This document shows positions 1-22,854 of a stretch of DNA of 32,000 bases, in pieces. The stretch is taken from the NCBI GenBank assembly GCA_042852035.1, contig BAAFHK010000001.1:270001-302000 (forward strand), read 5' to 3'. Made by a program: the position numbers and the translations under genes. Source of the stretch: Candidatus Saccharimonadota bacterium. GTDB taxonomy: Bacteria; Patescibacteriota; Gracilibacteria; BD1-5; UBA2023. Position 1 is the stretch's first letter; each line of letters starts with the position of its first letter. The notes below the pieces were generated by a model, which was not told where the DNA came from, did no database searches, and saw only the letters and a program-made list of their open reading frames with translations.

Positions 1-894
1 TCAGATACTGATAATGACGGATATGCTGACGGACTTGAGATAGAAAAGTCCTGGAATCCGCTTTCCCAAGAACTCTCTCCGGGACAGTATCCTTATGAAA
101 AAACAGAGGAACCAAGAGAAATTCCTCTCTCGTCTCAAGAGAGTTTTCATCCACAAAATAATAATCTTCTCCAAGATAGTGGTGTCTGGTGATCGGAATT
201 ATTTCATGAAGTACTGAGAAAGATTCGAATCTATATTGATGATGGAGAGAGTCCAATTTCTATTTTCCTTCTCTTAGTTTCTGTTGTGATTCTTTGATTC
301 TTTCATGCCCTTGGACCATGACATTCCAAATGAGTATTGGTATCGCAAATTATCAATGAAGATATGAGCTATATTCGTAGTATATTTTACTGTTGAGTTT
401 TTACTTTTGTACACCTTTTGGATATCGTAATTGTCGTTATACTCTCAAAATTCCTTTTTTCTTATATTGATTCGAGTGTATACCTTTCATATATTGCTCG
501 CTTGAGTACGGTACTTATTTTCTGAATTTCATTCTATTTGCTCTATCGTTCTGTCTCGAAATATTTTGTGAAAAATAGAAATTTATGAATAAATAACTCC
601 ACCCACCAGAAGGGCTCTATATTTCTTGCTATAATTACTGGTCTCACTCCATGCGCTTTTTGATGGAGTATTTTTCTTATGCTCTTTGCTCTCAAAAAAA
701 TTAATCTAGCACTCCCAATCCTTTCTGCTCTTGGTTTAGGTATTTTTCTCTGTCTCCTGAGTATTGCTACAGTAACCTGGTATTCGAGATCAAAAATATA
801 TAGTTTCTCTCCAAAAATTTCTCAGATATCACCAATTATTTCTTCCGTATTTCTCTTATTCATTGGATCAGGCCTTTTACTACAAAATTTTTAA
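1..894 (+). CDS. RcnA/NicO-family metal (Ni/Co) efflux-like membrane protein with hydrophilic N-terminal extension; 5' end outside window
   Basis: Frame 1 is open from base 1 to TAA 892-894 when TGA=Gly (several in-frame TGA). FFHALGPGHSKG at 298-333 matches the RcnA signature (E. coli RcnA LHGLEPGHSKT), and the Gly of PGH is a TGA. GLTPCAFG resembles RcnA GLIPCPAA. There are several hydrophobic spans. The first ~95 aa in the window are hydrophilic and carry a DTDNDGYADG Ca-binding-like motif. Confidence 0.6.
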
Positions 895-903
895 TTTTTT
901 TCT

Positions 904-3900
904 ATGAAAAAATTTCTCTCCCTTCTTCTTGTTCTCATTGTTTTAGTGTATAATACTTTTTTTATCACTTCGGCACTTCCGACAAACAATCTTTCATCAC
1001 CTTGGACGAGAGAAAAAGCAGAGCATCTTGCAAAGGCGGTCCTCTTTTCTGCAGATGCCAGGATGATAGATGATCTTTATAGTGCAGGAAGCGCAGCGCG
1101 TGCGGTCGATATTCTTTTCCCAAGTAGAGAGGGTCCTGATAGGACAGAATTTAAAAATTATCTCACTGCCTATACCTCTTCTGGATTTAATTGGGCGGAT
1201 GCAAACCACACAACAAGACTTTATCAGATTGTCTACGGAGCAGATCCCTATGAAGCGAAAAGAAAGCTTTTTTCACTATTCGAAGATATTTTTTCAGTGA
1301 ATAATGATAGCGGAAAAGATATAACTTTTAAAGATATTTCTGACTTACATACGCTCATATATGATAATATGTTTGGAGATTATCAGCTTCTAGTAAAAAA
1401 AGTTCTTTATAATAACTGATGAAGAGGGGATTACGCACTTTGAGCTTTTTTGGACCTTTTTAATCAAAATGACCCAGCCAAACCAAATGAGAACTACGCT
1501 CGTGAATTATTGCAGCTTTTTCTTATGGGGGAATATAAACCTCATGAATCAAAAGACAATGGTGATGTAAGGAATTACGAAGAATCTGATGTTCTGGCTC
1601 TTGCAAAGATACTTACTGGTCTCCGTTCTGTTCCTACAAGTCATGTTCTTTATTTTGATTCCACAAATCATTATGTTGCAAATCAGATTTCATTTTTAAC
1701 AGGTTCGATGTCTGAAACATTTCCATATTATAATACCTCTTCATGATTAATTGATCCAGTTAGTATTGTTGCTCCAGTAAATGCAAATAATTGACTTACA
1801 GATAATGTGATTGAGTATATTTTTGCTAAAAGATCAGATGCTATTGCTCTCTTTCTCGCTGATAGAATTGTACGATTTTATATTGAAGACAAGCCAAGCC
1901 GTGATAAGTTAGATTATGTGGCAGCGATTATTAAATCAAATAATTTTGATATCTATAATTCAGTAAAATCGATACTCACACTCGATATGATGTATTCAGA
2001 GACTTCGATGAATAGTATTCGATACAAAAATCCTCTTGAACTTAGTATCGGAACGATCCGATTTATGAGAAATAATGCATTTACTGGAATAATAATTGAT
2101 CCAAATCTCATAGATACGAATCTCCTTAGAAGATTGGGATGGACACCATATTTTCCAGGTAGTATTTTCGGAAGGGACTGATTTGATAATTCGATAAAAT
2201 GGTCGAGCACGAGTACGCTTTCTTCATGGATGAGTGCAACAAACATGTTTACATATCGAGTGAATGGTACTGGTGTGGTTGATTTTCTGTCCATCCTCTG
2301 AAATCAAAAAAAAGAAATTACGACGGAAGTTATCGGTGTCATGACACATGCAAATAATAGTTATTCAGGAGTACTTACTATCATTTCGTGAAGTCTTGAT
2401 CTTGGTGATCCAATAGTTACTTGAGTTTCACAGGCAAGGATTGCTCAATTTTCTTTCTTGGATGAAAACCTAAGTATCGAAGAACAAATAGTCAAAAATG
2501 GCTATCCACTCGATCCAGTTGTTGCCATAGAATGAGGAGAAAATCTCAATTTTATTACAAGTGAAATAACTTCATTTACTCCTGCGCTTCCGATACCTGA
2601 TGAGCCCTGAATGAATGAAGAAGCACCTATTCAAAGCGTTGAAATTAGCATATGAGATTCAGTGAATAACCCCTGAAATACTTGATCGGAATCCCTGATT
2701 ATTCCAGTTATAGAGTCAGAATCTATGACTGGAAGCTCCGTAATGTCTACTGAGATAGAGTCAGGGGGGACTATTAGTGGATCTGTCGAAGTTACCGAGA
2801 GGTCTAAAATTTTATCAATGGTACAAGAAGTCCAAGAAGCATCAACTGAAGTCACATGACAAAATATTTTGTCTTGAACGCTCCCAGAAGAATGAATTCC
2901 CTCATGAAGTGGAGAAGTTGTTGCCGTTTCTGAAGTATCAATACTTTCTGAAGAGAATACAAGATCTCTCTCTTGAATGACTGAAACAGGAGAGGTTATC
3001 AATACCGAACAATTAATAGGAAAGGTTGATTTTATTGATAGTACCTGATCATGAATTTGAGTCCAAACAGGGGGCATCCTCAATCTTTCTAACACGTGAA
3101 ATACGATCCCTGATTCATTATCAGGAAAGATAGATAATCTTCCTCAGTTAGAAGCCGTGACGATGGTATCGAATCTCACTGGATCAGTTACTCTCCCAAG
3201 CTTCCGAATTAACACAAATCTCTGAGCCATAACGCTTGGGAGTGGTTCATATGATGGACAAAAGAAGATCCTTACTGTTTTCTCTGGAACATTGCTCCAA
3301 GCTTCTGGTGCGATACTTCCGATATATTCATGAGTATTCCAGTTTTCTTCAGAATCTCGACTGATTGCTGATACAATCACTCCTGACATGATTATATCGA
3401 ATTATGAACAATATATTTATGGCGACTCTCGTATCCCAACTGACGCACGAGTATTTATGAGAGATTTTATTACACATGATTGAAGCGGTGCACTTATACC
3501 AGTAGCACCCTCGAATGCGGTATATTTCAATAAATATATTCGAGGACTTCTTTCGATTATGCTCTCACAGCCAGAATATGTCCTTCTTCGCTGATATGAT
3601 ATCCCTATTATAGAAAATCCGAATGAAACCAAATTTCTTGATTCCATTAAGGGAAAAATTTTCTTTATTGAACTGTATGGTGGAAATGATTACATGACGA
3701 GTATTATTCCAAAAGATGAGTATAGTACATATTTGGATTATCGATCCAATAGTTCTTGATCTATTGCTATTTCTGGGACAGGGCTTGTTGATATTGGTAA
3801 CTTTTACATGAATAGTGCTCTTGCATATGGAAATTCTGGTGCTACGGGATTCAAAGATCTCTATGATCAATGATATCTCAAAATTTTTAATAGAGTCGGT

Positions 3901-6900
3901 GGATATAAACACTCAAATGATCATGATGCAGCTGCGAAACAGATTTCATCGTATGATAGTACTACATCAGCATTTTCCGAATGAGTATTCGGGCATTTAG
4001 TAAAAAATGAACTTGAGAGTTCGCATACGATTTCTCTCGGGGCGAAGCTGCCAAATGTCTACCGTGCTGGTCACTATGTTAACCTTGGGTGAAATATCAT
4101 ACTTACAAACCCGCTCGATTCCTGAGGACAATGGAAATCGCATATGGATACGATGGTGACAATTACAAAAAATAGAGTTTATCCAGCTGATACGAGAAAC
4201 CTTTTTCAAGATGCAGGAAAAATCAGTGAAATTGGTAAGATTTCCGTTGCTCAATGATGAGCTCCAGGAGCAAGTGGAGATATGAATAGTGTCTTTAATT
4301 TTGCTAAAGTACTTATAAATAACAATATTTGAAGGACATTTTATATGTGATGAGCATGATGATATGATACTCATGGAAACCAATTTACATGACTCAATCA
4401 AAATCTTCGAACAGTGGGTAGTGCTGTTACAAAATTTTTTAATGATGTAAAAGATACGCAAGATGTAACAATCATAATCTTCTCTGAATTCGGACGTACG
4501 AATAAGACGAATGGAGATCTTGGAACTGATCATGGTGATGGAGGATGAATGTTCGTGCTCACATCGAATACTGATTTAAGGCAGCGCCTATCCGAAGGAA
4601 CGTATGGAAATATGTCTATTAAGTTTGCAAAGAATAACTCACTTGGTGTTGGTATTGATTATCGTTCGATTTATGGTTCAATTTTTCAATCCATATATTG
4701 ACTGAGTCCGATATCATATTTTGGTACGAATATTGATTTGAATCGAGATATTAGTCTCGAAAAGAGTAAGGTACAACTTCTTTCTTATTCATATCAGGCA
4801 TCATGACAAAACGTGATACTCAATGGTGAGTTTACGATATCAGGTTCTAATTATGATCCCGGAAAAGCATGATATACGAGGCTTGTTACTCATACGGGTT
4901 CTTCCAATCTAAAAATAACTCGACTGAGTGAAAAGTATACTCCAGAAGGATTTAAATATACCTTTCAAGCGAATCAAACTTCTAGCCCATATTTTACTAT
5001 TGAGTCATTCTCGAATCAGTATGCACTTTCTTCGTTTTCTGGAAATCTTGTTGATGCAACTCGGCCGATAATTCTTGGGAGTAATGTTCGTCATATTTCA
5101 CAATCCCAATCAAGTATTCTTCCAATTTTTTCAAATATTCAAGCCCCAGTGAAGCTCTCTGGGAGTGGGGTAATTCTTGAAAGTACAGGAAATACTATTG
5201 TGACACTTAGTGGAAGTTCTCTTCTTGCCCTTCATTTCGCTAGTGGTATAACACATGTTACTGATTTGACTACTACTTCATGATCTCTAGCTTGGAAATG
5301 AGGATTTATCCTTGGTGAAAAGGTAGATCGTGATTTATTTATTCCTGATAATGCTACTATAGTTTCTGAAAACAAAATTCTCCAAAGAGAATCCATCATC
5401 TCACTTATAAAAATAGGCGCAGATGTTCGTTGAATTGGTATGAATTTAAACCAACCAATTGGACTCGAGTTTCGATCACTCATTCCTAAAGAGAATTATC
5501 GTGTTCTCACAAGTCAGGATGGTATATCTTGGGATGATGTTGAATCGGGAAAAAGTTATACAGGAAGCACAAATGGGAGTATATACGTAGAGACGAGTCA
5601 TTTCTCATATTTTGCTGTAGTTCTCGCGAATGGTATTATTGAGAGTATCCCCACTTGTACAATCAGCGCAAGTCCAGTGAGCGTATTCAATTGATCAGGA
5701 ACTACGCTTTCTTGGGCTATTCAAAATACACTTACGGGTACGCTTAGCCCACTAAATAGCATCATTGGCACAGGTGGATTCCTTAATGTGATCCCCCCAA
5801 ATAATGCCACTACACGCTATACTATACAGGTATCAAATTCTGCAGGTGTGAATTCTTGTAGTGTGAGTGTTACTTCTATGGATGTACCACCACCTCCTCC
5901 TGATTCTCCATGATGTTTCATTACGGCTTCACCAACTACAGTACAAAATGGTAGTAGTTCGATAATTAGCTGGACCCTAATAAATACGCAGTCATGAGTA
6001 CTCAATCCAGGAAATCTTTCAGTAGGGATGACTTGATCGTTCTCATATACTCCTCCAGTTAATTCAAGTACAACCTTTGGTATAGATGTAAGAAATTCTA
6101 CGGGTTCATGATTTTGTAGCGTAGTAGTTAAAAGCAATACGGAAAATACAAATCCAGTGGTACCGAATGTTCCAAATATCTGACCCGGCTGACCAAGCTG
6201 ATTGCCTGATTCTAGTTCTTGTCCAATCGGACTTCACCTCTGTGATAAAAGCAACGGATTAATATCTCATCAATCTTCCCAAAGTGGGTATACTGATGTT
6301 ATCCCAGTGCAAGATAGTATTTTTGGCACAATGAATTATATAATTCAAAAATGGGAAAATTGAAGTGTACGTCTTATTTCTCCAGGACCATCAGTGCTTT
6401 CCAAGGAAATAATGAATCATCTTCAAAATGGGGTAACTTGAAAAATAACATCTCTTGGTAATGTAATAGACTACTTAAGGATGCAAAAAATCGGAAAGAA
6501 ATCTCAAACGCAGCGAGCTATAAATCGAACTATATTGGAAATCCAGACCAACTCTTCAAGATGACAAATTGCAGCTTTGCATGAAAAAACCCCAGAAGTT
6601 ACCGATTTTGAATCCAAAAATCCTGAAGTACTCAGCAGAGTTCCTATCGAATCGATGGGATTTGTACCCACAAAAGGTCAATTTTATGTTGCGGCTGAAA
6701 GCTCACTGAGGCTCCATACTACCCCAGTGGTTTCCGATCTTAACATTATCGACTATCTTCCAAGGAATACAAGAGTGGAATTACTCGAGACGAATGGGGA
6801 TTGGGCAAATGTGAAATTCGGATCACAAGAATGATATGTACGACAGTCATTTCTTCGAGAATTAAAGCTTGAAGACAGAATTCGATCATGAGAAGTAGAT

Positions 6901-7098
6901 TTTTCACTTGGTGAACATAAAAAAATAGATGTAAAGCAGAGCCTCTTTATTCGAGAAAAACAATCAACCACCTCTTCGATTCGATGAGTACTTTTTCGGG
7001 ATGATGTGGTGGTTATTCTTGATAGAGTTGGAAAGTGGGTAGAGATTCTCACGGATAAATATCACGGATTTATTAACAAAAAGTATCTCGTTGAATAA
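904..7098 (+). CDS. Giant (2,064 aa) secreted or surface protein: DUF1800-DUF1501 fusion followed by beta-rich region, two Cys-bracketed Ig-like repeats and two SH3b-like domains
   Basis: Frame 1 was checked codon by codon: there is no TAA/TAG between ATG 904 and TAA 7096-7098, and there are dozens of in-frame TGA. The N-terminus is signal-peptide-like (MKKFLSLLLVLIVLVYNTFFITSALP). DUF1800 hallmarks are NENYARELLQLFLMGEY (1486-1536) and the C-terminal SQPEYVLLRGYD (~3565-3600). DUF1501 hallmarks follow directly in frame: FFIELYGGNDYMTSIIP (~3661-3711), GGAGGYDTHGNQ (4348-4383, encoded TGA TGA GCA TGA TGA ...) and FSEFGRTNKTNGDLGTDHGDGGG (4480-4548). The repeats lie at 5650-6135 and the SH3b-like modules at ~6673-6855 and ~6931-7092. 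Confidence 0.8.
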
Positions 7099-7345: not shown

Positions 7346-7609
7346 ATGGAACACAAAGCAAAAAAATCCCTCATGGAAAAGTATGCGACACATAAGGGTG
7401 ATACTGGTTCTCCAGAAGTTCAAATCGCAATTCTCACGTCTCGTATAGAAAACCTTAAGTCTCACCTTGAGACTCACAAGCAAGATAATCACTCTCGTCG
7501 TGGTATCGTAATGATGGTGGCAAAACGAAGAAAGCTTCTAGACTATCTTAAGAGAAAAGATGAAGCTCGCTACAACGACCTTATAGGAAAACTTGAACTC
7601 AGAAAATAA
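7346..7609 (+). CDS. rpsO: 30S ribosomal protein S15
   Basis: The 87-aa ORF contains [57 protein letters not shown], which is colinear with bacterial S15. It ends in TAA. Confidence 0.95.
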
Positions 7610-7615
7610 TCAAAA

Positions 7616-7645
7616 AGGATCTCCAACTGGAGGTCCTTTTTTTCT
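7616..7645 (+). terminator. Rho-independent terminator after rpsO
   Basis: AGGATCTCC (7616-7624) / loop AACT / GGAGGTCCT (7629-7637), a 9-bp stem with one G-U pair, followed by T7 (7638-7644). Confidence 0.7.
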
Positions 7646-7688
7646 TTGTCCCTATTGTTTTCTTCCTATTTTTCTTTATTATCAGTTT

Positions 7689-8210
7689 ATGATTTCCTAT
7701 TTTCTCATTGGTGTCTCCATCCTTGTGACGCTTTATGTTTGGCAGAATAAAACACTGCTTATGTATGGAATGAATTGAGACTTTCTTAAGAAAGGGGATT
7801 ATGTCTCTTTTTGGAAGCAGGTACTTGCATTCCAATTCATACATGGCGATGTTTTACATATCGTCATGAATAGTTATTTTCTCTATTCAGCATGACCAAT
7901 TATTGAGGAGATACTTTGAAGCGCTCGATATGGTGTATTTTTTATTACCTCGACACTCTTTTCAGTGGCGATGCTTTTTTTCTTTGCTTCAAGACAAAAT
8001 ACTATAGGAATATCTGGTTTTTGTATGTCAATCCTATCGTATCTCTGGATTCTACTTTATTCTTCTTGATCATCATGAACAGAAGAGATAGGAAGACTCC
8101 TTATTATTAATATTGTTATTGGATTTCTTCCTGGTATTTCACTTGTTGGACATGTCGCAGGAGCTATTTGGGGTATTCTTTTCTGGATCATAACTCGAAA
8201 CTTTATCTAA
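7689..8210 (+). CDS. Rhomboid-family intramembrane serine protease (173 aa), paralog 1
   Basis: With TGA=Gly the translation gives FIHGDVLHIVMNSYFLYSAGPIIEEILG (rhomboid HxxxxHxxxN region), GISGFCMSILSY (GxSG catalytic Ser) and GHVAGAIWG (catalytic His), plus multiple TM spans. The ATG at 7689 is the most plausible start after the rpsO terminator. Confidence 0.75.
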
Positions 8211-8226
8211 ACTAGAGTATTTTAAT

Positions 8227-8796
8227 ATGAAGATACATTCCTCAATTGCTTTTTATCCAAAAAGATATATTTCCCACTTTCTTATACTTTTATCAGTAAT
8301 AATAAGCATTTTTGGTTTTCTTATGCCAAATTTAGTGCAATTATTTTGACTTCATAGGATACAAGTTTCCTCTGATTCTCTTTTTTACGTTATTTGACAG
8401 ATTGTTTTATTTCAGTTCCTCCATGGATGATTCTTACATCTCTTTCTGAATTCTTACTTTCTTTACCAGGCATGACCAGAAATAGAATCTCGCATGCAAA
8501 GAAAAACTTTCTTTATTTTTTTCGCTTGATCTTCACTTTTTGTTGCTCTATCACTTTGGATTTTTTCGGGAAATGTTCTCACAGTTGGGATTTCTGGATT
8601 CTGTATGGCACTCCTGTCATATTTATATATGGATTTAAATCGCATCCGGCACCCGTATGCAAATCAAATTCTATTTATGCTCGTAGTAAATATTCTTATG
8701 TGACTTTATGGGAATATAAGTTTTGTTGGACATTTGAGTGGTGCTTTGTGGGGATTTCTCTGGTGGCAAATGAGGGAAAAAAGGAAGTTCCGATAA
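8227..8796 (+). CDS. Rhomboid-family intramembrane serine protease (189 aa), paralog 2
   Basis: Same motif set as paralog 1: FLHGGFLHLFLNSYFLYQAGPEIE, GISGFCMALLSY, GHLSGALWG. It starts 16 nt after paralog 1 and ends TAA 8794-8796. Confidence 0.75.
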
Positions 8797-8800
8797 GTTA

Positions 8801-9718
8801 TTAAATCTTTATCACAAGCATATTTTCGCGTTCATGAAAATTTGGAGATTCTTTCATGAGAATTGGGTAATTTTCCTTCTTTCCAGTGTAATAGAGGTGA
8901 AAATAATACTTTCTTGTTGTTTTTTTCTTCCGCAATTCCTCGAAAGATTTTTTCATCGCTAAAATATTGGAAAGTGAATCATCTGAGAATCCAATCGATA
9001 GCGGGAGATCATGCAGAAGGGTGTTTTTATAAATTTTATCTTCCACAAGAGAAAGAGCATGTTTGAGCGCGAAAACTTTTCTATCTGACATATTTTCAAC
9101 ACTATTTATATTAAGATATTTCGCTACGTGTGGATTTGATACAGGATAGTAGGACACAATCTGCTCAAAATAATATCTCAGAGCTTGATCTGGGCTTAAA
9201 ACGGTTTTGCTCTTTTGAAGTAGGGAGTAGAGATTTTGAATATTTTTTTGCTGTATTGCTTTTTCTTCTTGTGAAAGCAACATCTCATTGATAATCCAGA
9301 GAATACGAGCTAGATTATCCGGTCAATGGCCTCGACTTGTTATAATCGTCAGAAATCTTGCAGGAATAAGAAAAAGTTCTTTTAAACTCAAGAAACTTGG
9401 TGAGAGAGCTTTTTCCTTTACGGCTTGTTCAATATCTTCTTTAAGTTTATCTGGTCATCAATGCCTTGGATCGCTATGGTAGTCACGAAAGTGTATGAGT
9501 GAATCTAGTATATCATTATGCCAACGATATGGCGCTTCGGGTCATGATATAAGTTCTGGGTTTTTATCAAGGGTATGTCATGCGATTGCAACTTCTTCAC
9601 CAGACTTTCGGTCAATCACATATATTGGTGTTTCTGGCGCGAGGATATTCCCATCGAAGTCGAATGCTCCGAGGGCAATGCGTTCGTCAATGAGAAGTGA
9701 ATTGGCTAAATGTTTCAT
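8801..9718 (-). CDS. HAD-superfamily-like hydrolase (305 aa), function unknown
   Basis: ATG at 9718-9716; the frame was verified free of TAA/TAG down to TAA 8801-8803. AFDFDGNIL (~9641-9667) looks like HAD motif I (DxDG), ITSRGH like motif II, and GFSDDS like the acidic motif IV. The start overlaps the helicase stop by 13 nt (ATGAAACATTTAG). Confidence 0.5.
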
Positions 9719-12700
9719 GCTATGAGATCTTCTTCAAACATACGAATTCATTCAATCGTTTGAGGGTATTTTTTCACATCAGGAAAATCAAGTGTCTTTA
9801 TTTTTGACATTACTGCAATTATGAGCTTTTTCGTGCGTTCAATTTCTCATTCTTGTATATACTCAATAACTCGATGATAGCGATCTTCATCCCTATTTTT
9901 TTCTACAAAAAAAAGCTCGAAAGTTTTTTTCTCAAACATTCGCCATCGAGGAGACATTTCGAATAAAACGGCATAAAAACAGAGCTGAAGTCGATACTTC
10001 CATTGTTTGAGTTTTTCATATTCGGCTCATTTTAGAGTAAAAGAGTCGAATCCTTGTCCAGTCTTATAGTCCGTTATTATGAGGCTATCATCAGGTTTTT
10101 TTTCAATACGATCGATTTTTCATGTAATTTGCACATCTCAAAGAAAAGTTCATCAATGAGCTGCACGAAAATCATACTCAAGAAAGAGCTCTCAGTAAGA
10201 TTCCTTTTTCAGTTCTTCATAGAGCGATTCGAGATGAGTTTTTCATCGTTCGAGGAAATCAGCCTCAGTTTGGGAATCAAACCCTTCTTTTATAAAGTAT
10301 TCTTTGAAGCTTTCAAAAAGAATTCATTTATTGTAAGCCTTTTTTGACATAAAATCCGTAAAGAAATCTTCAAGGGCTTTATGTATCGCAGATCAATAGC
10401 TTGCATTCGCGCTTTTTGCTTGAGGAAATCGCAGTAAAGAATTGGCAACAAAATACTGTGGTCATGCATCAACAATATTAAGAAAATTCTGAAGAGCGGT
10501 TACATTCATTACAAATATTTTCTCTATTCGATCTCGTAGAAAATCGGATTCTTCTCCAAGGTATGGGAGATTAAAAAGCTCATTCTTTTCGACCTCGAGT
10601 GTCGTAATTATGTTTGGAAGAGGAAGAGTTGTGAGCTCTTCCCAATCATCCGATTCAACCTCTATGCAGGGCAAAGGCTCAAGAGGTTTTTCGTTTATAT
10701 TTTCCCTTGAGTAACTAATAGTCAGGGAGTCTTTTGCTCGAGTAAATGCTGTATAAATAAGTCTTTCTATGTCTTCATTATTATCACGTTCTGCTTCAAG
10801 GGGAAGATTCTTAGGAAGAGGTGATCATCCAAATTTTCATTGTTGATACTCGCTACGAGTGACACATGGAACATAAACACACTTCCATTCGAGTCCCTTG
10901 GCTTTGTAAACAGTGATAAGGTTTATTGCATTCTTGTCATTTCATATAATATGTGAAGTTTCTATATCAAGATTGTATTTTTCAATAAGAGACAGGAGAT
11001 GTATTGCATCGGAAATTTTTAAATATCCTTTATTTTTCTTTTGTGCTCGGACTTGCTCTATAAATACTCGAATATTCGATAAATGGCGTGCATATATTAT
11101 ATTCGGATTATTATGGTTTGATAATTGACCAAAAAAGTAATTATAAAAAGGTGAGATATAATTTTTTCTCCCCGATCCAAATAGATCAATTTGTAAGAGA
11201 TTTTCTTTTCCTTCATCATCGTATTCATCTGGAATTGGGAGAGTATTTGCTCCAGTAATAAAGTCGATAATATCCTCTAATCTTTCATTCTGTGATTTGA
11301 AATTCAGTTCTCGAAAAAAATTAGCTATGTCACGAAGATTTCCATCTTCATGTCGGGCAAGATTTTCTATCCAAGACTTGTTGCTTTCCTTGCGGGCATG
11401 GTATATATTTTTTGAAATACTCCAAAGAGTGAGTCGATGGATTCCAAAACAAGGGTGAGAAAGTATACTTAGGAGAAGTTCAGCATCCTCGGTTCTGTAA
11501 TCACCGTTGAGTGAGTGTACAAATTTGAGTATATTTATGAGAAGATGAATTTCATCGGACTCAAAAATTGATTCATCTTTTGAGAGGTTTATGGGAATAT
11601 TTTTTTCAAGGAGTCATTTTCCTATAAGTTCGAGAGTTTTATTTTTCTTCGTGATGATTGCAATTTCATTAGACTTTACTCATGTTTTTAGTATGGAGGC
11701 TATATCTTCTATAATCCAGGCTATCTCCTCAAGTTCATTTCTAAAAATATGCTTTTTTACAATACCTTCAGTACCTCTTACGGCTTCAAATTTTTTTACA
11801 GCTCATTCAAAAATATTTGCAATATTGTTCAATTCTGATTTAATAACTGTACGACTTTCACAAATAATTTCATTCTTGGAACGATAATTTTGCTCAAGAA
11901 TAATAAGTCGAGTATCACTATATGCATCATGAAAATCACGAATATTCTTCGTATTTGCTCACTGGAATTTGTATATAGATTGATCATCATCACCGACTGC
12001 AAAAATATTTGGATTCTCAGTGACTCAAAGTATCCCGTTAATGAGAGTCATTTGTGCATCATTGGTGTCTTGAAATTCATCAATCATTATGAATTGATAT
12101 TGTTCTGCGAGACTCATTCGAACAATATCATTCTCTCTGATAAGTCTTATAGATTCTAGAATCATATCAGAAAAATCAATGAGTCATCGCTTTTTGAGTG
12201 CTGATTGATATTCTTCAAAAATGCTTATGAGTGCCTCTTGTTTTTGGAGCTTTCCTGTTTCTTTGAGGTCTCTGGTATTTTTGTGATTTTTTATCGTCCA
12301 AGAATCTCTCCAGCTATTCATGAATTTTGTGCTTCCATCACCTTCATAGAGTTCCCATATTTCATTCAGACTTCTTTGGAGAATGGTTTCAAATCGTTCG
12401 TAGGTTCCTATAGTCTTTTCAATAACGGACAATTCTTGAACCTTATTTGTTAATTCTTCGAATAACTTAATCTTTTTTTCCTTCTCTTCTTTCTTTTGTC
12501 ATAGTGCATCAATTTGTAAAAAATAGGCTTCAATGATGGGTGAAATTTTTTCAATGGCTTGTCTATTTTTTTCGAGGATAGCCTTATAAAAAGACGGTGT
12601 AATGCCTCATCTTTTGAGATTATCAATCGTTCACTGTACTTCTTTTATTGTATCACTTGCTCGGAAACCTGGCTTATATGGATTATCCCATGAAAGTTTT

Positions 12701-13086
12701 TCGAGAATTTCATCGAGAATACTTGAAGCTTCGATAGGGTCTACAGGACGTGCGTCATTATATTCTTTTGAGAGGTATCGAAAGCGATTCAGTATTTCAC
12801 TTCAAAAACTATGAAAGGTATGGATGGCAACCTTATATGCATCTTGACCAATCATGCTTGCGAGACGATCTCTCATATTGCGTGCAGCATTCTCTGTGAA
12901 GGTAAGACAGAGTATATTGTTTGGAAGATAGTCAGTAATTCTTAGGATATTGGCAATTCGTGCAGAGAGGAGCTCCGTCTTTCCGCTTCATGGTCAAGCA
13001 ATAACGAGCACAGGACCATAAATTGTATCCACAGCTTCTCTTTGTTTAATATTGAGTTTTTTATATCGTTCTTCGAAAGTAGTCAT
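9706..13086 (-). CDS. UvrD/PcrA-type SF1 helicase fused to C-terminal RecB-like PD-(D/E)xK nuclease (1,126 aa)
   Basis: All lines were scanned: no in-frame TAA/TAG from ATG 13086 to TAG 9706-9708. Walker A is AGPGSGKT (12976-12999, two of its Gly are TGA). Helicase motifs present: CLTFTENAARNM, MIDEFQDT (12064-12087), FAVGDDDQSIYKFQGA, LEQNYRS, TVYKAKGLEW, YTAFTRAK. The C-terminal nuclease motifs are GKIDRIEKKPDDSLIITDYKTG (~10060-10125) and YRLQLCFY (QxxxY). Confidence 0.8.
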
Positions 13087-13097
13087 GCCAATATGAT

Positions 13098-13127
13098 ATA
13101 AAAAATCCCCCGAAAGTCGAGGGATTT
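13098..13127 (-). terminator. Rho-independent terminator after ahcY
   Basis: On the minus strand: AAATCCCTCGA / CTT / TCGGGGGATTT, an 11-bp stem with one U-G pair, followed by a T-run. It begins 4 nt after the ahcY stop and ends ~12 nt before the helicase ATG. Confidence 0.6.
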
Positions 13128-13130
13128 CTA

Positions 13131-14519
<1,389 letters not shown>

Positions 14520-21864: not shown

Positions 21865-22854
21865 ATGCGTTCACTTCTTGTTCTTGTTTCTACTATTCTT
21901 GTTGCCTGTACTTGAGCATATATTTTTTCTGTAAATAGTGACGAACTTGCAGGAGCCCAGCTTATCACAAACTGTGATGGAACCCAATTTATCAGGACTT
22001 CACCCGGAGAGCTCCGAGTGCAGATTGTAGCGAAGAATCTTCCTGGCTGTATCGGTAAGGCTTCATCTTGATCTACTTCTGTGGTAGTATCTTCTGGAAC
22101 AACTCTTACCGTAGTAAAAGATGTTACAAACTGTAATGGTCTCCGCGTTATTTCTTATTCTGATGGAAGCTATAAGAGTTTCTATGCAGAAAAAAATCTT
22201 CCAAATTGTATCCGAGCAGGATATGTTCCTGAGGTAAATACAGGTTCACGTATTGATCTTTCTCATGGACCTCTTCTTGATCTTGCTTCCACAGAAATCG
22301 TTAATTATCGAGCACAACTCCTAAAGGACCAAGGCATTCGATTCGCTAATGCCGTACGAAGTGCTCGAATCCGAAGAGCAGCTACAAAACAGTCAAATAC
22401 TGAAGCAATCCTCATGAGAAACGATGCCGTAGTCGTAAATGGAGATGTTACAGGTTGGACAAAAGTGACAGGTGCTGAACTTGAGGTAACAAGCACTCAG
22501 GAAAATACCGTAGAGGCTAATACTGATGGGAAAGCGTCTGGGTATACTGCAGGTCGACTTCTTCGTGATCCGAATATTTCGGATTTAGTAAAAATCGAGC
22601 AAGCAGACCATGCTTACTGGAGTGATATTGCTTATACAAATGTAGAAAAGTATGTGAATATTCGTTCAAATCCAAACTATGAAGCCCCAATAGTTACGAC
22701 TCTCGGAAGAAATTACCCACTCTTTGTAATTTCTACAGTAGATAACTGGTCTCTTGTGCGAAATGATTCTGGAACTATCCGTGGATACATCCGTTCAGAT
22801 TATCTTCGTATTGAAAAAGTCCAGCGTGTTGATACTTCAAATGGAGTAAAATAA
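21865..22854 (+). CDS. Putative lipoprotein with C-terminal SH3b-like domain (329 aa)
   Basis: MRSLLVLVSTILVAC has a lipobox-like LVAC. The ORF continues through two TGA codons into track ORF 22081-22854. The C-terminus YVNIRSNPNYEAPIVTTLGRNYPLFVISTVDNWSLVRNDSGTIRGYIRSDYL fits the bacterial SH3 (SH3_3) pattern. Confidence 0.7.

Follow-up and report, generated by a model that had tools for sequence, protein, structure and literature searches.

A predicted wall-anchored fusion of DUF1800 and DUF1501 in the UGA=Gly clade of the candidate phyla radiation, and its linked RcnA-like gene

DUF1800 and DUF1501 rank among the more widespread uncharacterised extracytoplasmic pairs, and many paralogues of them occur in Planctomycetes. 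In the closest described arrangement, a two-gene module present in Proteobacteria, Bacteroidota, Planctomycetota, Acidobacteriota and others, a DUF1800 gene is accompanied by a DUF1501 gene whose product carries a twin-arginine translocation (Tat) signal. Likewise, in the PSCyt/PSD1 (DUF1549/DUF1553) modules described from Planctomycetes and Verrucomicrobia, a DUF1501 protein is combined with a large uncharacterised partner, both being exported; these modules are unfused, use Tat and are represented by many paralogues per genome (PMC3542564). Here, we analysed a stretch of 32,000 nucleotides from contig BAAFHK010000001.1 (assembly GCA_042852035.1, positions 270,001 to 302,000; hereafter the window), in which a single open reading frame (ORF) at 904..7098 of the forward strand encodes both domains within one polypeptide. 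Judging from its sequence and from that of its relatives, this is very probably a real and lineage-wide fusion whose product is exported and anchored at the surface, and which is linked to an RcnA-like gene.

Domain order, invariant residues and the predicted extracytoplasmic location are shared between this protein and the two-gene module. It differs from the latter in being one polypeptide with a Sec instead of a Tat signal, in a β-module and an acidic loop nested within DUF1800, in ~780 extra C-terminal residues comprising a stalk and wall anchors, and in its RcnA-like neighbour. The PSCyt/PSD1 modules employ a different partner family, and none of 28 fused members matched PSCyt or PSD1. 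With respect to its layout, the protein resembles the wall-anchored exoenzymes of Gram-positive bacteria that carry SH3b or SLH domains, in which an N-terminal catalytic part is followed by an Ig-like stalk and by C-terminal modules that bind the wall non-covalently; here, however, the catalytic part is an uncharacterised two-DUF fusion and the bearer belongs to a lineage of the candidate phyla radiation (CPR).

The ORF comprises 2,064 sense codons under genetic code 25 and ends with TAA; before its start, the frame is closed by a TAA at position 892. Read with table 11, it contains 61 stops, all of which are TGA, and not a single TAA or TAG. The encoded protein is a 100% match to HHAS10_02880, located on a 750-kb contig of the metagenome-assembled genome HHAS10, Candidatus Altimarinota (JAEDAM01). 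Two source papers on the HHAS10 organism assign it to class JAEDAM01, report UGA=Gly as determined by Codetta, place the cells within Zoogloea clusters of activated sludge and describe a hybrid assembly of HiSeq and PacBio circular consensus reads with 3 contigs, 1.3 Mb and a completeness of 97.7%; the gene studied here is mentioned in neither of them (PMC11393006, PMC9530719). In the window, every plausible gene contains between 1 and 28 in-frame TGA codons. At 28 TGA positions within conserved blocks of the large protein, glycine or tryptophan accounted for 66% of the aligned homologue residues, compared to a background of 8% over all positions; tryptophan at such positions is the rendering by pipelines that apply code 4. 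Among the glycine codons of the ORF, TGA is the most used, with 61 occurrences versus 58 of GGA. Public records of the clade, such as the entries P0078-P0111, are often mis-translated in one of two ways, as code 11 splits the genes at TGA and code 4 introduces tryptophan in place of conserved glycines, e.g. in GWYDTH.

Within this frame, Pfam identified DUF1800 (PF08811) at residues 45-462 with an E-value of 2e-34 (119.7 bits, cut-off 26.1) and DUF1501 (PF07394) with an E-value of 8e-13 (48.8 bits, cut-off 27), which confirms the in-frame fusion proposed in an initial annotation made from the DNA sequence alone. The DUF1501 assignment was further substantiated by hhalign against 66 standalone DUF1501 proteins, yielding a probability of 99.9% and an E-value of 3e-34 over 340 columns (query residues 911-1271). 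Standalone DUF1501 proteins align to residues ~913-1275, with an identity of only ~24%. The junction itself is well delimited. As the annotation had suggested, SQPEYVLLRGYD at residues 888-899, which begins with SQPEY (888-892), represents the C-terminal motif of DUF1800: three unrelated standalone DUF1800 proteins terminate at ...TPEFQIL, ...APEMMFR and ...SPEYAIER, following the pattern PE[FYM]xxx, and within the family there is little or no variation at P890 and E891. Since standalone DUF1800 proteins stop at the same motif, past which the present chain runs on as a result of the fusion, we place the true end of the domain at residue ~896. The linker that follows is conserved in length and variable in sequence, and it lacks a stop, a start or a Tat motif, as had been noted before; a Tat-like motif was found in none of 75 fused members, neither in the linker nor at the N-terminus.

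To assess how widespread the fusion is, we employed several searches. A word-indexed search retrieved ~75 clusters (90% identity; 1,205-2,266 aa) that carry both DUF1800 and DUF1501, and all named clusters belong to Candidatus Gracilibacteria, Absconditabacterales or Altimarinota. Both domains were found by Pfam in 28/28 diverse fused members. An exhaustive search of 1.84 billion representatives at 50% identity returned only 50 proteins at E ≤ 1e-30, in which every long match was fused and aligned from its own residue ~430-930 onward; standalone DUF1501 proteins of ~400 aa first appeared at E ~1e-19. In a representative search, 2,998 clusters matched the query segment at E ≤ 0.001. From species-representative genomes (GTDB) we further obtained a list of 80 loci, which was filled by unfused pairs, so that the spread of the fusion within its clade is not derivable from it. 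Both parts were co-oriented in 73 of these loci. Two adjacent ORFs were present in 71 of the 73, from Bacteroidota, Planctomycetota, Acidobacteriota, Chloroflexota, Actinomycetota and others, and a single ORF occurred only in the two Gracilibacteria loci. In three unfused loci (L012-L014), DUF1800 lies directly upstream of DUF1501. A crude regular expression detected a Tat-like motif before DUF1501 in 48 of the 71 unfused loci; moreover, the twin arginines are conserved to at least 90% among 66 standalone DUF1501 proteins, and a Tat motif opens each of the eight sequences that were inspected. The expectation that the two domains are normally encoded by separate, adjacent genes with a Tat signal on DUF1501 thus holds. 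The view that the architecture is peculiar to this genome does not: throughout the UGA=Gly clade of Gracilibacteria, JAEDAM01/Altimarinota and Absconditabacterales, the module typically occurs as this fusion, and elsewhere it consists of two genes. In agreement with the initial annotation, we found no earlier characterisation of the architecture in the literature.

Outside bacteria, a protein of 2,363 aa from the diatom Seminavis robusta (P0077) carries DUF1800 (~632-740) and then DUF1501 (~1903-1971) in one polypeptide, which appears to be an independent eukaryotic fusion.

The large protein starts with a single N-terminal signal peptide, as had been predicted, which by inspection is of the Sec type and contains neither a lipobox cysteine nor a twin-arginine motif. 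Across the family, a simple heuristic predicts a signal peptide for 59 of 75 members, and an RR motif was seen in none of them. Among freshwater CPR bacteria, Tat has been reported only from Microgenomatia, Paceibacteria and Saccharimonadia (PMC9166423). This distribution is consistent with a change from Tat to Sec; it is general to freshwater CPR and no test of this particular genome. All six cysteines of the protein are arranged as three pairs that are confined to the C-terminal modules, which fits an extracellular protein.

To gain insights into the molecular architecture, we built two AlphaFold2 models spanning residues 26-900 and 830-1990, employing a family alignment of 74 sequences. The resulting layout is summarised in Table 1. 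Conservation within the family follows blocks, with residues 1-460 and ~820-1573 being conserved and the insert and the tail being variable. An NCBIfam scan of the 2,064-aa protein gave no match, and a sequence search of the PDB, with the protein as well as with the 74-sequence family profile, returned SH3b matches and one low-complexity match only.

Table 1 Features of the fusion gene and of its upstream neighbour in the window.
Feature	Coordinates (strand)	Residues	Basis
RcnA/NicO-like gene, 3' part (297 codons + stop)	1..894 (+)		open from window edge; identical to P0216 C-terminus
Sec-type signal peptide, MKKFLSLLLVLIVLVYNTFFITSA then LP	904..978 (+)	1-25	inspection of translation
DUF1800 core, all-α	979..2298 (+)	26-465	Pfam PF08811, AlphaFold2 model
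Insert nested in DUF1800: β-module and acidic loop	2308..3372 (+)	469-823	model
DUF1800 C-terminal helices, ending in SQPEYVLLR	3382..3591 (+)	827-896	model, standalone C-termini
Fusion linker, 16 residues	3592..3639 (+)	897-912	family comparison
DUF1501 catalytic-type domain, α/β	3640..4758 (+)	~913-1285	Pfam PF07394, hhalign, model
Two β-sandwich modules, family-conserved	4768..5640 (+)	1289-1381 and 1412-1579	conservation, model
Two Ig-like repeats	5653..6138 (+)	1584-1659 and 1670-1745	model, repeat identity
Low-confidence linker, Pro-rich, partly helical	6145..6672 (+)	1748-1923	pLDDT <50
Two SH3b (SH3_3) modules, then TAA	6673..7098 (+)	~1924-1988 and 2008-2062	Pfam

The model of residues 26-900 has a mean predicted local distance difference test score (pLDDT) of 77 and a predicted template modelling score of 0.73. 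Its DUF1800 core is all-α with a pLDDT above 90, and the NENYARE motif at residues 195-201 is invariant across the family. According to this model, an insert of ~360 residues (469-823), which the initial annotation had not described, is nested inside DUF1800. It consists of a β-module whose strands (469-500 and 753-823) reach a pLDDT of ~95 and which is split by an acidic loop of ~240 residues (508-749) that is predicted to be disordered (pLDDT ~30). The segment 463-825 carries a net charge of -32 and abounds in S, G, T and E, and the confidently modelled helices 827-893 close DUF1800. Of the family members, ~75% have the nested β-part and 5-30%, the closest relatives only, have the acidic loop; some homologues have a mere 10-25 aa at this position. 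A Foldseek search of the model against the PDB gave nothing at E ≤ 0.001 (best E 0.29). The modelled DUF1800 fold hence is without a solved structural relative detectable by Foldseek in the PDB. Together with the linked RcnA-like gene described below, the nested module and this modelled fold are new relative to the initial annotation.

In the model of residues 830-1990 (overall pLDDT 80), DUF1501 is an α/β domain with a pLDDT of 85-97. The motifs that the annotation had reported as intact are all present, i.e., GGND (926-929), GGYDTH (1152-1157), SEFGRT (1194-1199) and GTDHG (1207-1211), and their D, H, S, E and R residues are invariant across 74 homologues. The invariant residues of the domain in the family are D929, R947, S1004, H1007, D1155, H1157, E1195, F1196, R1198, D1209 and H1210. 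In the hhalign alignment to the standalone protein P0112, D929 corresponds to D50, R947 to R67, H1007 to H117, D1155/H1157 to D263/H265, E1195-T1199 to E306-T310, N1203 to N314 and D1209/H1210 to D319/H320. The invariant residues are located at strand ends and helix starts of the model in the order D...S/H...DxH...DH. Metal ligands and nucleophile follow one another in the same way in two-metal enzymes of the alkaline-phosphatase superfamily, such as PhoA, NPP and iPGM. A formylglycine motif (C/S-x-P-x-R) was not found in the sequence, and the pattern looks more like that of two-metal phospho(di)esterases than that of formylglycine sulfatases. By its position, S1004 is a candidate nucleophile. 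Weak Pfam matches to Phosphodiest (three members, best E 0.002) and Sulfatase (two members) were obtained for standalone DUF1501 proteins, and when 28 fused members were scanned against Pfam with permissive settings, there was no match to any other family of the alkaline-phosphatase clan, to which we take DUF1501 itself to belong.

A phage-encoded DUF1501 protein (BFVD A0A6J5M742, uncultured Caudovirales, 489 aa) matched the model of residues 830-1990 at an E-value of 1e-7.

Of the ~780 aa that follow DUF1501 and that had been described as β-rich, ~460 aa (1289-1745) are indeed confidently modelled β-modules, and the ~175 aa thereafter are a low-confidence linker. The two β-sandwich modules (1289-1381 and 1412-1579) are conserved in more than 85% of the family, their model is confidently all-β, and F1310, N1316, Q1372, T1450, W1464, D1507, S1537 and W1543 are near-invariant. 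The next ~75 residues are repeated once, with 33/76 identical residues, no gap and a confident all-β model. Cysteine pairs (1585/1652 and 1671/1738) bracket these two repeats, which is in accordance with the initial annotation, as are the two SH3b modules at the C-terminus. The best Foldseek matches of the 830-1990 model were tandem Ig arrays at E-values of 4e-7 and weaker. SH3_3 (PF08239) was matched in two stretches with an E-value of 2e-13 (50.8 bits, cut-off 27), the first SH3b module is included in the model, and the entries 2kq8, 2kt8 and 2krs were the SH3b matches found by sequence in the PDB. The third cysteine pair, 1773/1780, lies in the Pro-rich linker within CPIGLHLC (nucleotides 6220-6243), a degenerate version of the family motif CPxGD[YF]SxSYYDxxC. 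This motif occurs in 41 of 75 fused proteins (P0013-P0075), ~180 residues from the C-terminus, and could be a clade-specific element for surface sorting or anchoring.

The C-terminal module itself varies: close relatives have SH3_3, Absconditabacterales have SLH, and other members have Big_9 or cadherin-like modules. SLH domains tether proteins to the wall of their producer. In one close relative (L006, JGI 3300056624, 8001-13420), the fused ORF stops at 1,205 aa right after DUF1501, and a separate ORF of 464 aa with a faint SH3_3 match lies ~400 nt downstream; core and anchor may be truly separated here, or an error in sequencing may have split them. Elsewhere in the window, a secreted protein of 329 aa (21865-22854, forward strand) combines a signal-like N-terminus with a C-terminal SH3_3 domain (E 1e-12), so that this genome seems to employ SH3b as a wall anchor repeatedly.

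We then turned to the gene upstream of the fusion. The first 894 nt of the window belong to HHAS10_02870, which encodes 505 aa in full and is separated from the large ORF by 9 nt. The protein consists of a signal peptide, the sequence AHPLD, an extracytoplasmic domain of ~200 aa, Ca-binding TSP3 repeats and a membrane domain. Judging by its hydrophobic stretches, the latter is of the six-helix type, and it contains the motifs HALGPGHSKG and GLTPCAFGWS. In a one-sequence search, the profile of the neighbour family matched E. coli RcnA, a Ni/Co exporter, with an E-value of 3e-19 over both membrane halves, in which the motifs LG.H..GPGHSK and GL.PC are kept. Compared to RcnA, the neighbour adds the N-terminal signal peptide, the extracytoplasmic domain and the TSP3 repeats, and most of its copies score below the NCBIfam and Pfam family cut-offs. 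NicO was found in the L002 copy with an E-value of 1e-7 (32.1 bits), and the NCBIfam model PRK10019 for nickel/cobalt efflux transporters gave a weak match to the neighbour, far below its cut-off.

A homologue of this neighbour is adjacent to and co-oriented with the fusion gene in eight of ten complete fused loci. It lies upstream in the window as well as in L001, L005, L006 and L010, and downstream in L002, L004 and L015. With the window protein, the fusion proteins of these loci share an identity of only 26-58%, and the other flanking genes differ. None of ~77 loci fetched around unfused relatives contained an RcnA-like gene. The RcnA-like membrane protein is thus genetically linked to the fused form only. 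Its family comprises ~50 clusters (P0198-P0247), named as Gracilibacteria or Altimarinota, and identical longest-contig sizes suggest that at least eight members share contigs with members of the fusion family. A scan for promoters and terminators performed at chance level and gave no such signal between the neighbour and the large ORF in the window. In 40 of 48 full-length members of the neighbour family, [AGS]HP[LIVM]D follows right after the signal peptide; the predicted mature extracytoplasmic domain would hence carry an N-terminal His and might bind metal through this end. A possible connection of this domain to DUF6702 (PF20420) is weakly indicated, with an E-value of 0.29 for the L002 copy and a precomputed assignment on the distant relative P0248.

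To characterise the surroundings of unfused pairs, we clustered 590 ORFs around 72 of them and observed no informative recurrent neighbour. The commonest one, present in 10/72 loci, is an OmpR-type regulator as judged from reading a representative sequence. In Delftia (L013, CP120956.1, 3838-7215), a Fur-family gene lies directly upstream of the unfused pair with ExbB/ExbD nearby; the Fur gene does not recur among the 72 loci, and the Delftia case is a one-off.

Based on these data, we propose a Sec-exported and wall-anchored enzyme that is supplied with metal outside the cell, an explanation that as a whole stands at an even chance. DUF1800 and DUF1501 would work as one complex, and the fusion is Rosetta-stone evidence that they form one working unit. 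DUF1501 would be a metal-dependent hydrolase, esterase or transferase of the alkaline-phosphatase type, with DUF1800 as its accessory or substrate-binding partner. Placing the fusion behind a Sec signal would replace export by Tat, set a 1:1 stoichiometry and retain the enzyme in a cell that has no periplasm, and the Ig-like stalk together with the SH3b pair would hold it on the producer's own peptidoglycan. Zoogloea, the reported host, is Gram-negative and its peptidoglycan would be unexposed; because of this, and because relatives employ SLH domains, anchoring to the own wall is the simpler reading. The likely role of such an enzyme would be to process or scavenge phosphoester-type compounds at the interface of symbiont and host.

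With respect to metal supply, precedents exist for pre-metalated enzymes taking the Tat route and for Sec-exported ones being provided with metal (PMC10550928). Since Tat allows loading in the cytoplasm and Sec does not (PMC10550928), the enzyme would cross the membrane unfolded and would be loaded outside with metal supplied by the adjacent putative RcnA-like exporter. This metalation step is a tentative one. It is argued by analogy to Bacillus subtilis, in which MeeF and MeeY, both TerC proteins, metalate the Mn-dependent, Sec-inserted LtaS (PMC10550928). The likeness is one of working principle only, i.e., a metalloenzyme exported unfolded plus a membrane metal transporter. Here, the transporter is NicO/RcnA-like and the link is genetic only, and LtaS is membrane-embedded and not wall-anchored. 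Combining all parts into a three-part surface machine, in which the UGA-recoded clade turned a periplasmic, Tat-dependent pair into a wall-tethered Sec fusion and a dedicated RcnA-like exporter hands over the catalytic metal by way of its extracytoplasmic domain, is speculative and on the doubtful side. If true, it would constitute a new route of extracytoplasmic metalation and the first functional handle on two widespread DUFs, and it might mark an enzyme of major importance for harvesting nutrients where symbiont and host meet. The apparent swap from Tat to Sec and the linked RcnA-like gene provide a testable case of how exported metalloenzymes are supplied with metal. Gracilibacteria and Absconditabacteria are episymbionts or predators with 1-Mb genomes, and a clade-conserved gene of 6 kb, ~0.5% of such a genome, stands out among them as a candidate for an activity that is central at the cell surface.

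Several observations weigh against this proposal. Pfam NicO in the window copy of the neighbour (a 202-aa ORF, 286-894) has an E-value of 8e-5 and 22.5 bits, below the cut-off of 27.7. The His-rich cytoplasmic loop of RcnA is absent from the neighbour, which contains at most 2-3 His per 30-aa window, and the fused loci L003 and L016 have no neighbour homologue within 8-10 kb. On the side of DUF1501, the serine considered as nucleophile is offset by two positions between the invariant S1004 of the fused form and the near-invariant S116 of the standalone form (P0112). When the 830-1990 model was compared to PDB and BFVD by Foldseek, tandem Ig arrays dominated the top 50, so that the one phage DUF1501 protein was the only relative of the DUF1501 fold to emerge, and the family profile of 74 sequences found no DUF1501 match in the PDB. 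An hhalign comparison of this profile to the single sequence of E. coli AslA returned a probability of 0.3%, the comparison being powerless. The putative link to alkaline phosphatases draws on the assumed clan, the weak Pfam matches and the residue pattern, and the literature gives no biochemical function for either DUF1800 or DUF1501.

We considered whether the fusion could be an artefact, be it that the assembly is chimeric, that the genetic code was set wrongly or that the gene is a pseudogene in decay. The apparent support for this amounts to short database fragments that contain DUF1501 only. A 57%-GC relative (L010, GCA_964540725.1, 4908-11327) accounts for them, because its homology runs through every break and each break is an in-frame TGA; we therefore rejected 'truly split' relatives and short DUF1501-only entries as products of code-11 gene calling across such codons. 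Given the frame free of TAA and TAG over 2,064 codons, the retained invariant residues, a junction that recurs in ~75 independent homologues, and a hybrid assembly with long reads in 3 contigs, the concern raised initially about an assembly artefact at the junction is ruled out, and the probability of any artefact is negligible. Even in the 57%-GC relative, TGA is a sense codon, though rare. A quite different idea is that the protein serves in attack on or attachment to the host, with SH3b and Ig-like modules binding the Zoogloea surface and the enzyme damaging or remodelling the host envelope, as the initial annotation had considered. The organism is an episymbiont within Zoogloea clusters where the host signal in fluorescence in situ hybridisation falls nearby (PMC11393006), and its genome lacks the synthesis of nucleotides, amino acids and phospholipids and so needs outside material (PMC9530719). 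A large exported protein with adhesin-like Ig arrays, and with cadherin-like or Big_9 modules in some family members, would suit such a role. The anchor, however, is variable and includes the SLH domain of Absconditabacterales, which binds wall polymers of the producer itself, and the peptidoglycan of a Gram-negative host is hidden from the surface. What is conserved is the enzyme with the two β-modules, not the binding modules, and no toxin-like or lytic domain was found among the Pfam and NCBIfam matches of the protein. Taken together, we regard host attack as unlikely.

Biogenesis of the own envelope, in which DUF1501 would transfer or remove phospho-substituents on wall polymers as LtaS, OpgB, EptA and BcsG do, appears unlikely to a similar degree. 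It is equally compatible with the anatomy of the protein, and it would agree with the conservation of the gene across the clade, with plausible own-wall anchoring by SH3b or SLH and with a window in which the gene is surrounded by others for housekeeping and the envelope, including MurA, MurI and SecDF, as read from the translations, as well as Acyl_transf_3 and two rhomboids confirmed by Pfam. DUF1800/DUF1501 pairs have undergone co-transfer with chitin synthase and sugar-modifying genes in some Proteobacteria (PMC5122149), and LtaS offers a precedent of an Mn-dependent enzyme that is inserted via Sec and relies on a partner for metal delivery (PMC10550928). However, the RcnA-like gene aside, the fused loci show no conserved synteny with envelope genes, the 72 unfused loci have no recurrent polysaccharide or wall-synthesis neighbour, and, unlike in LtaS and EptA, there is no membrane anchor beside the catalytic domain. 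Alternatively, a surface enzyme could free or capture metal that the NicO-family neighbour would import. The NicO family includes the importers HoxN and NixA, the genetic link to this permease is tight, the neighbour combines its predicted mature N-terminal His (40/48) with external Ca-binding TSP3 repeats, and the Delftia pair is preceded by the Fur gene. We nevertheless consider metal acquisition highly improbable: the profile of the neighbour matches the RcnA efflux subfamily (NCBIfam PRK10019, RcnA), Fur does not recur and metal-transporter neighbours are missing among the unfused pairs, and the conserved residues of DUF1501 look like a catalytic metal site and not like a shuttle.

Downstream of the fusion gene, the window contains tandem genes for rhomboid-family intramembrane proteases at 7593-8210 and 8227-8796 of the forward strand (Pfam E-values of 9e-19 and 2e-21), which begin ~500 nt after the large ORF; this linkage was not observed in the other fused loci. 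On the reverse strand, a UvrD-helicase/PD-(D/E)XK nuclease fusion gene of 1,126 aa (9706-13086) overlaps by ~145 nt with an ORF of 349 aa without a Pfam match (8801-9850). As the overlap is delimited by first start codons, the true start of the 349-aa ORF probably lies further downstream.

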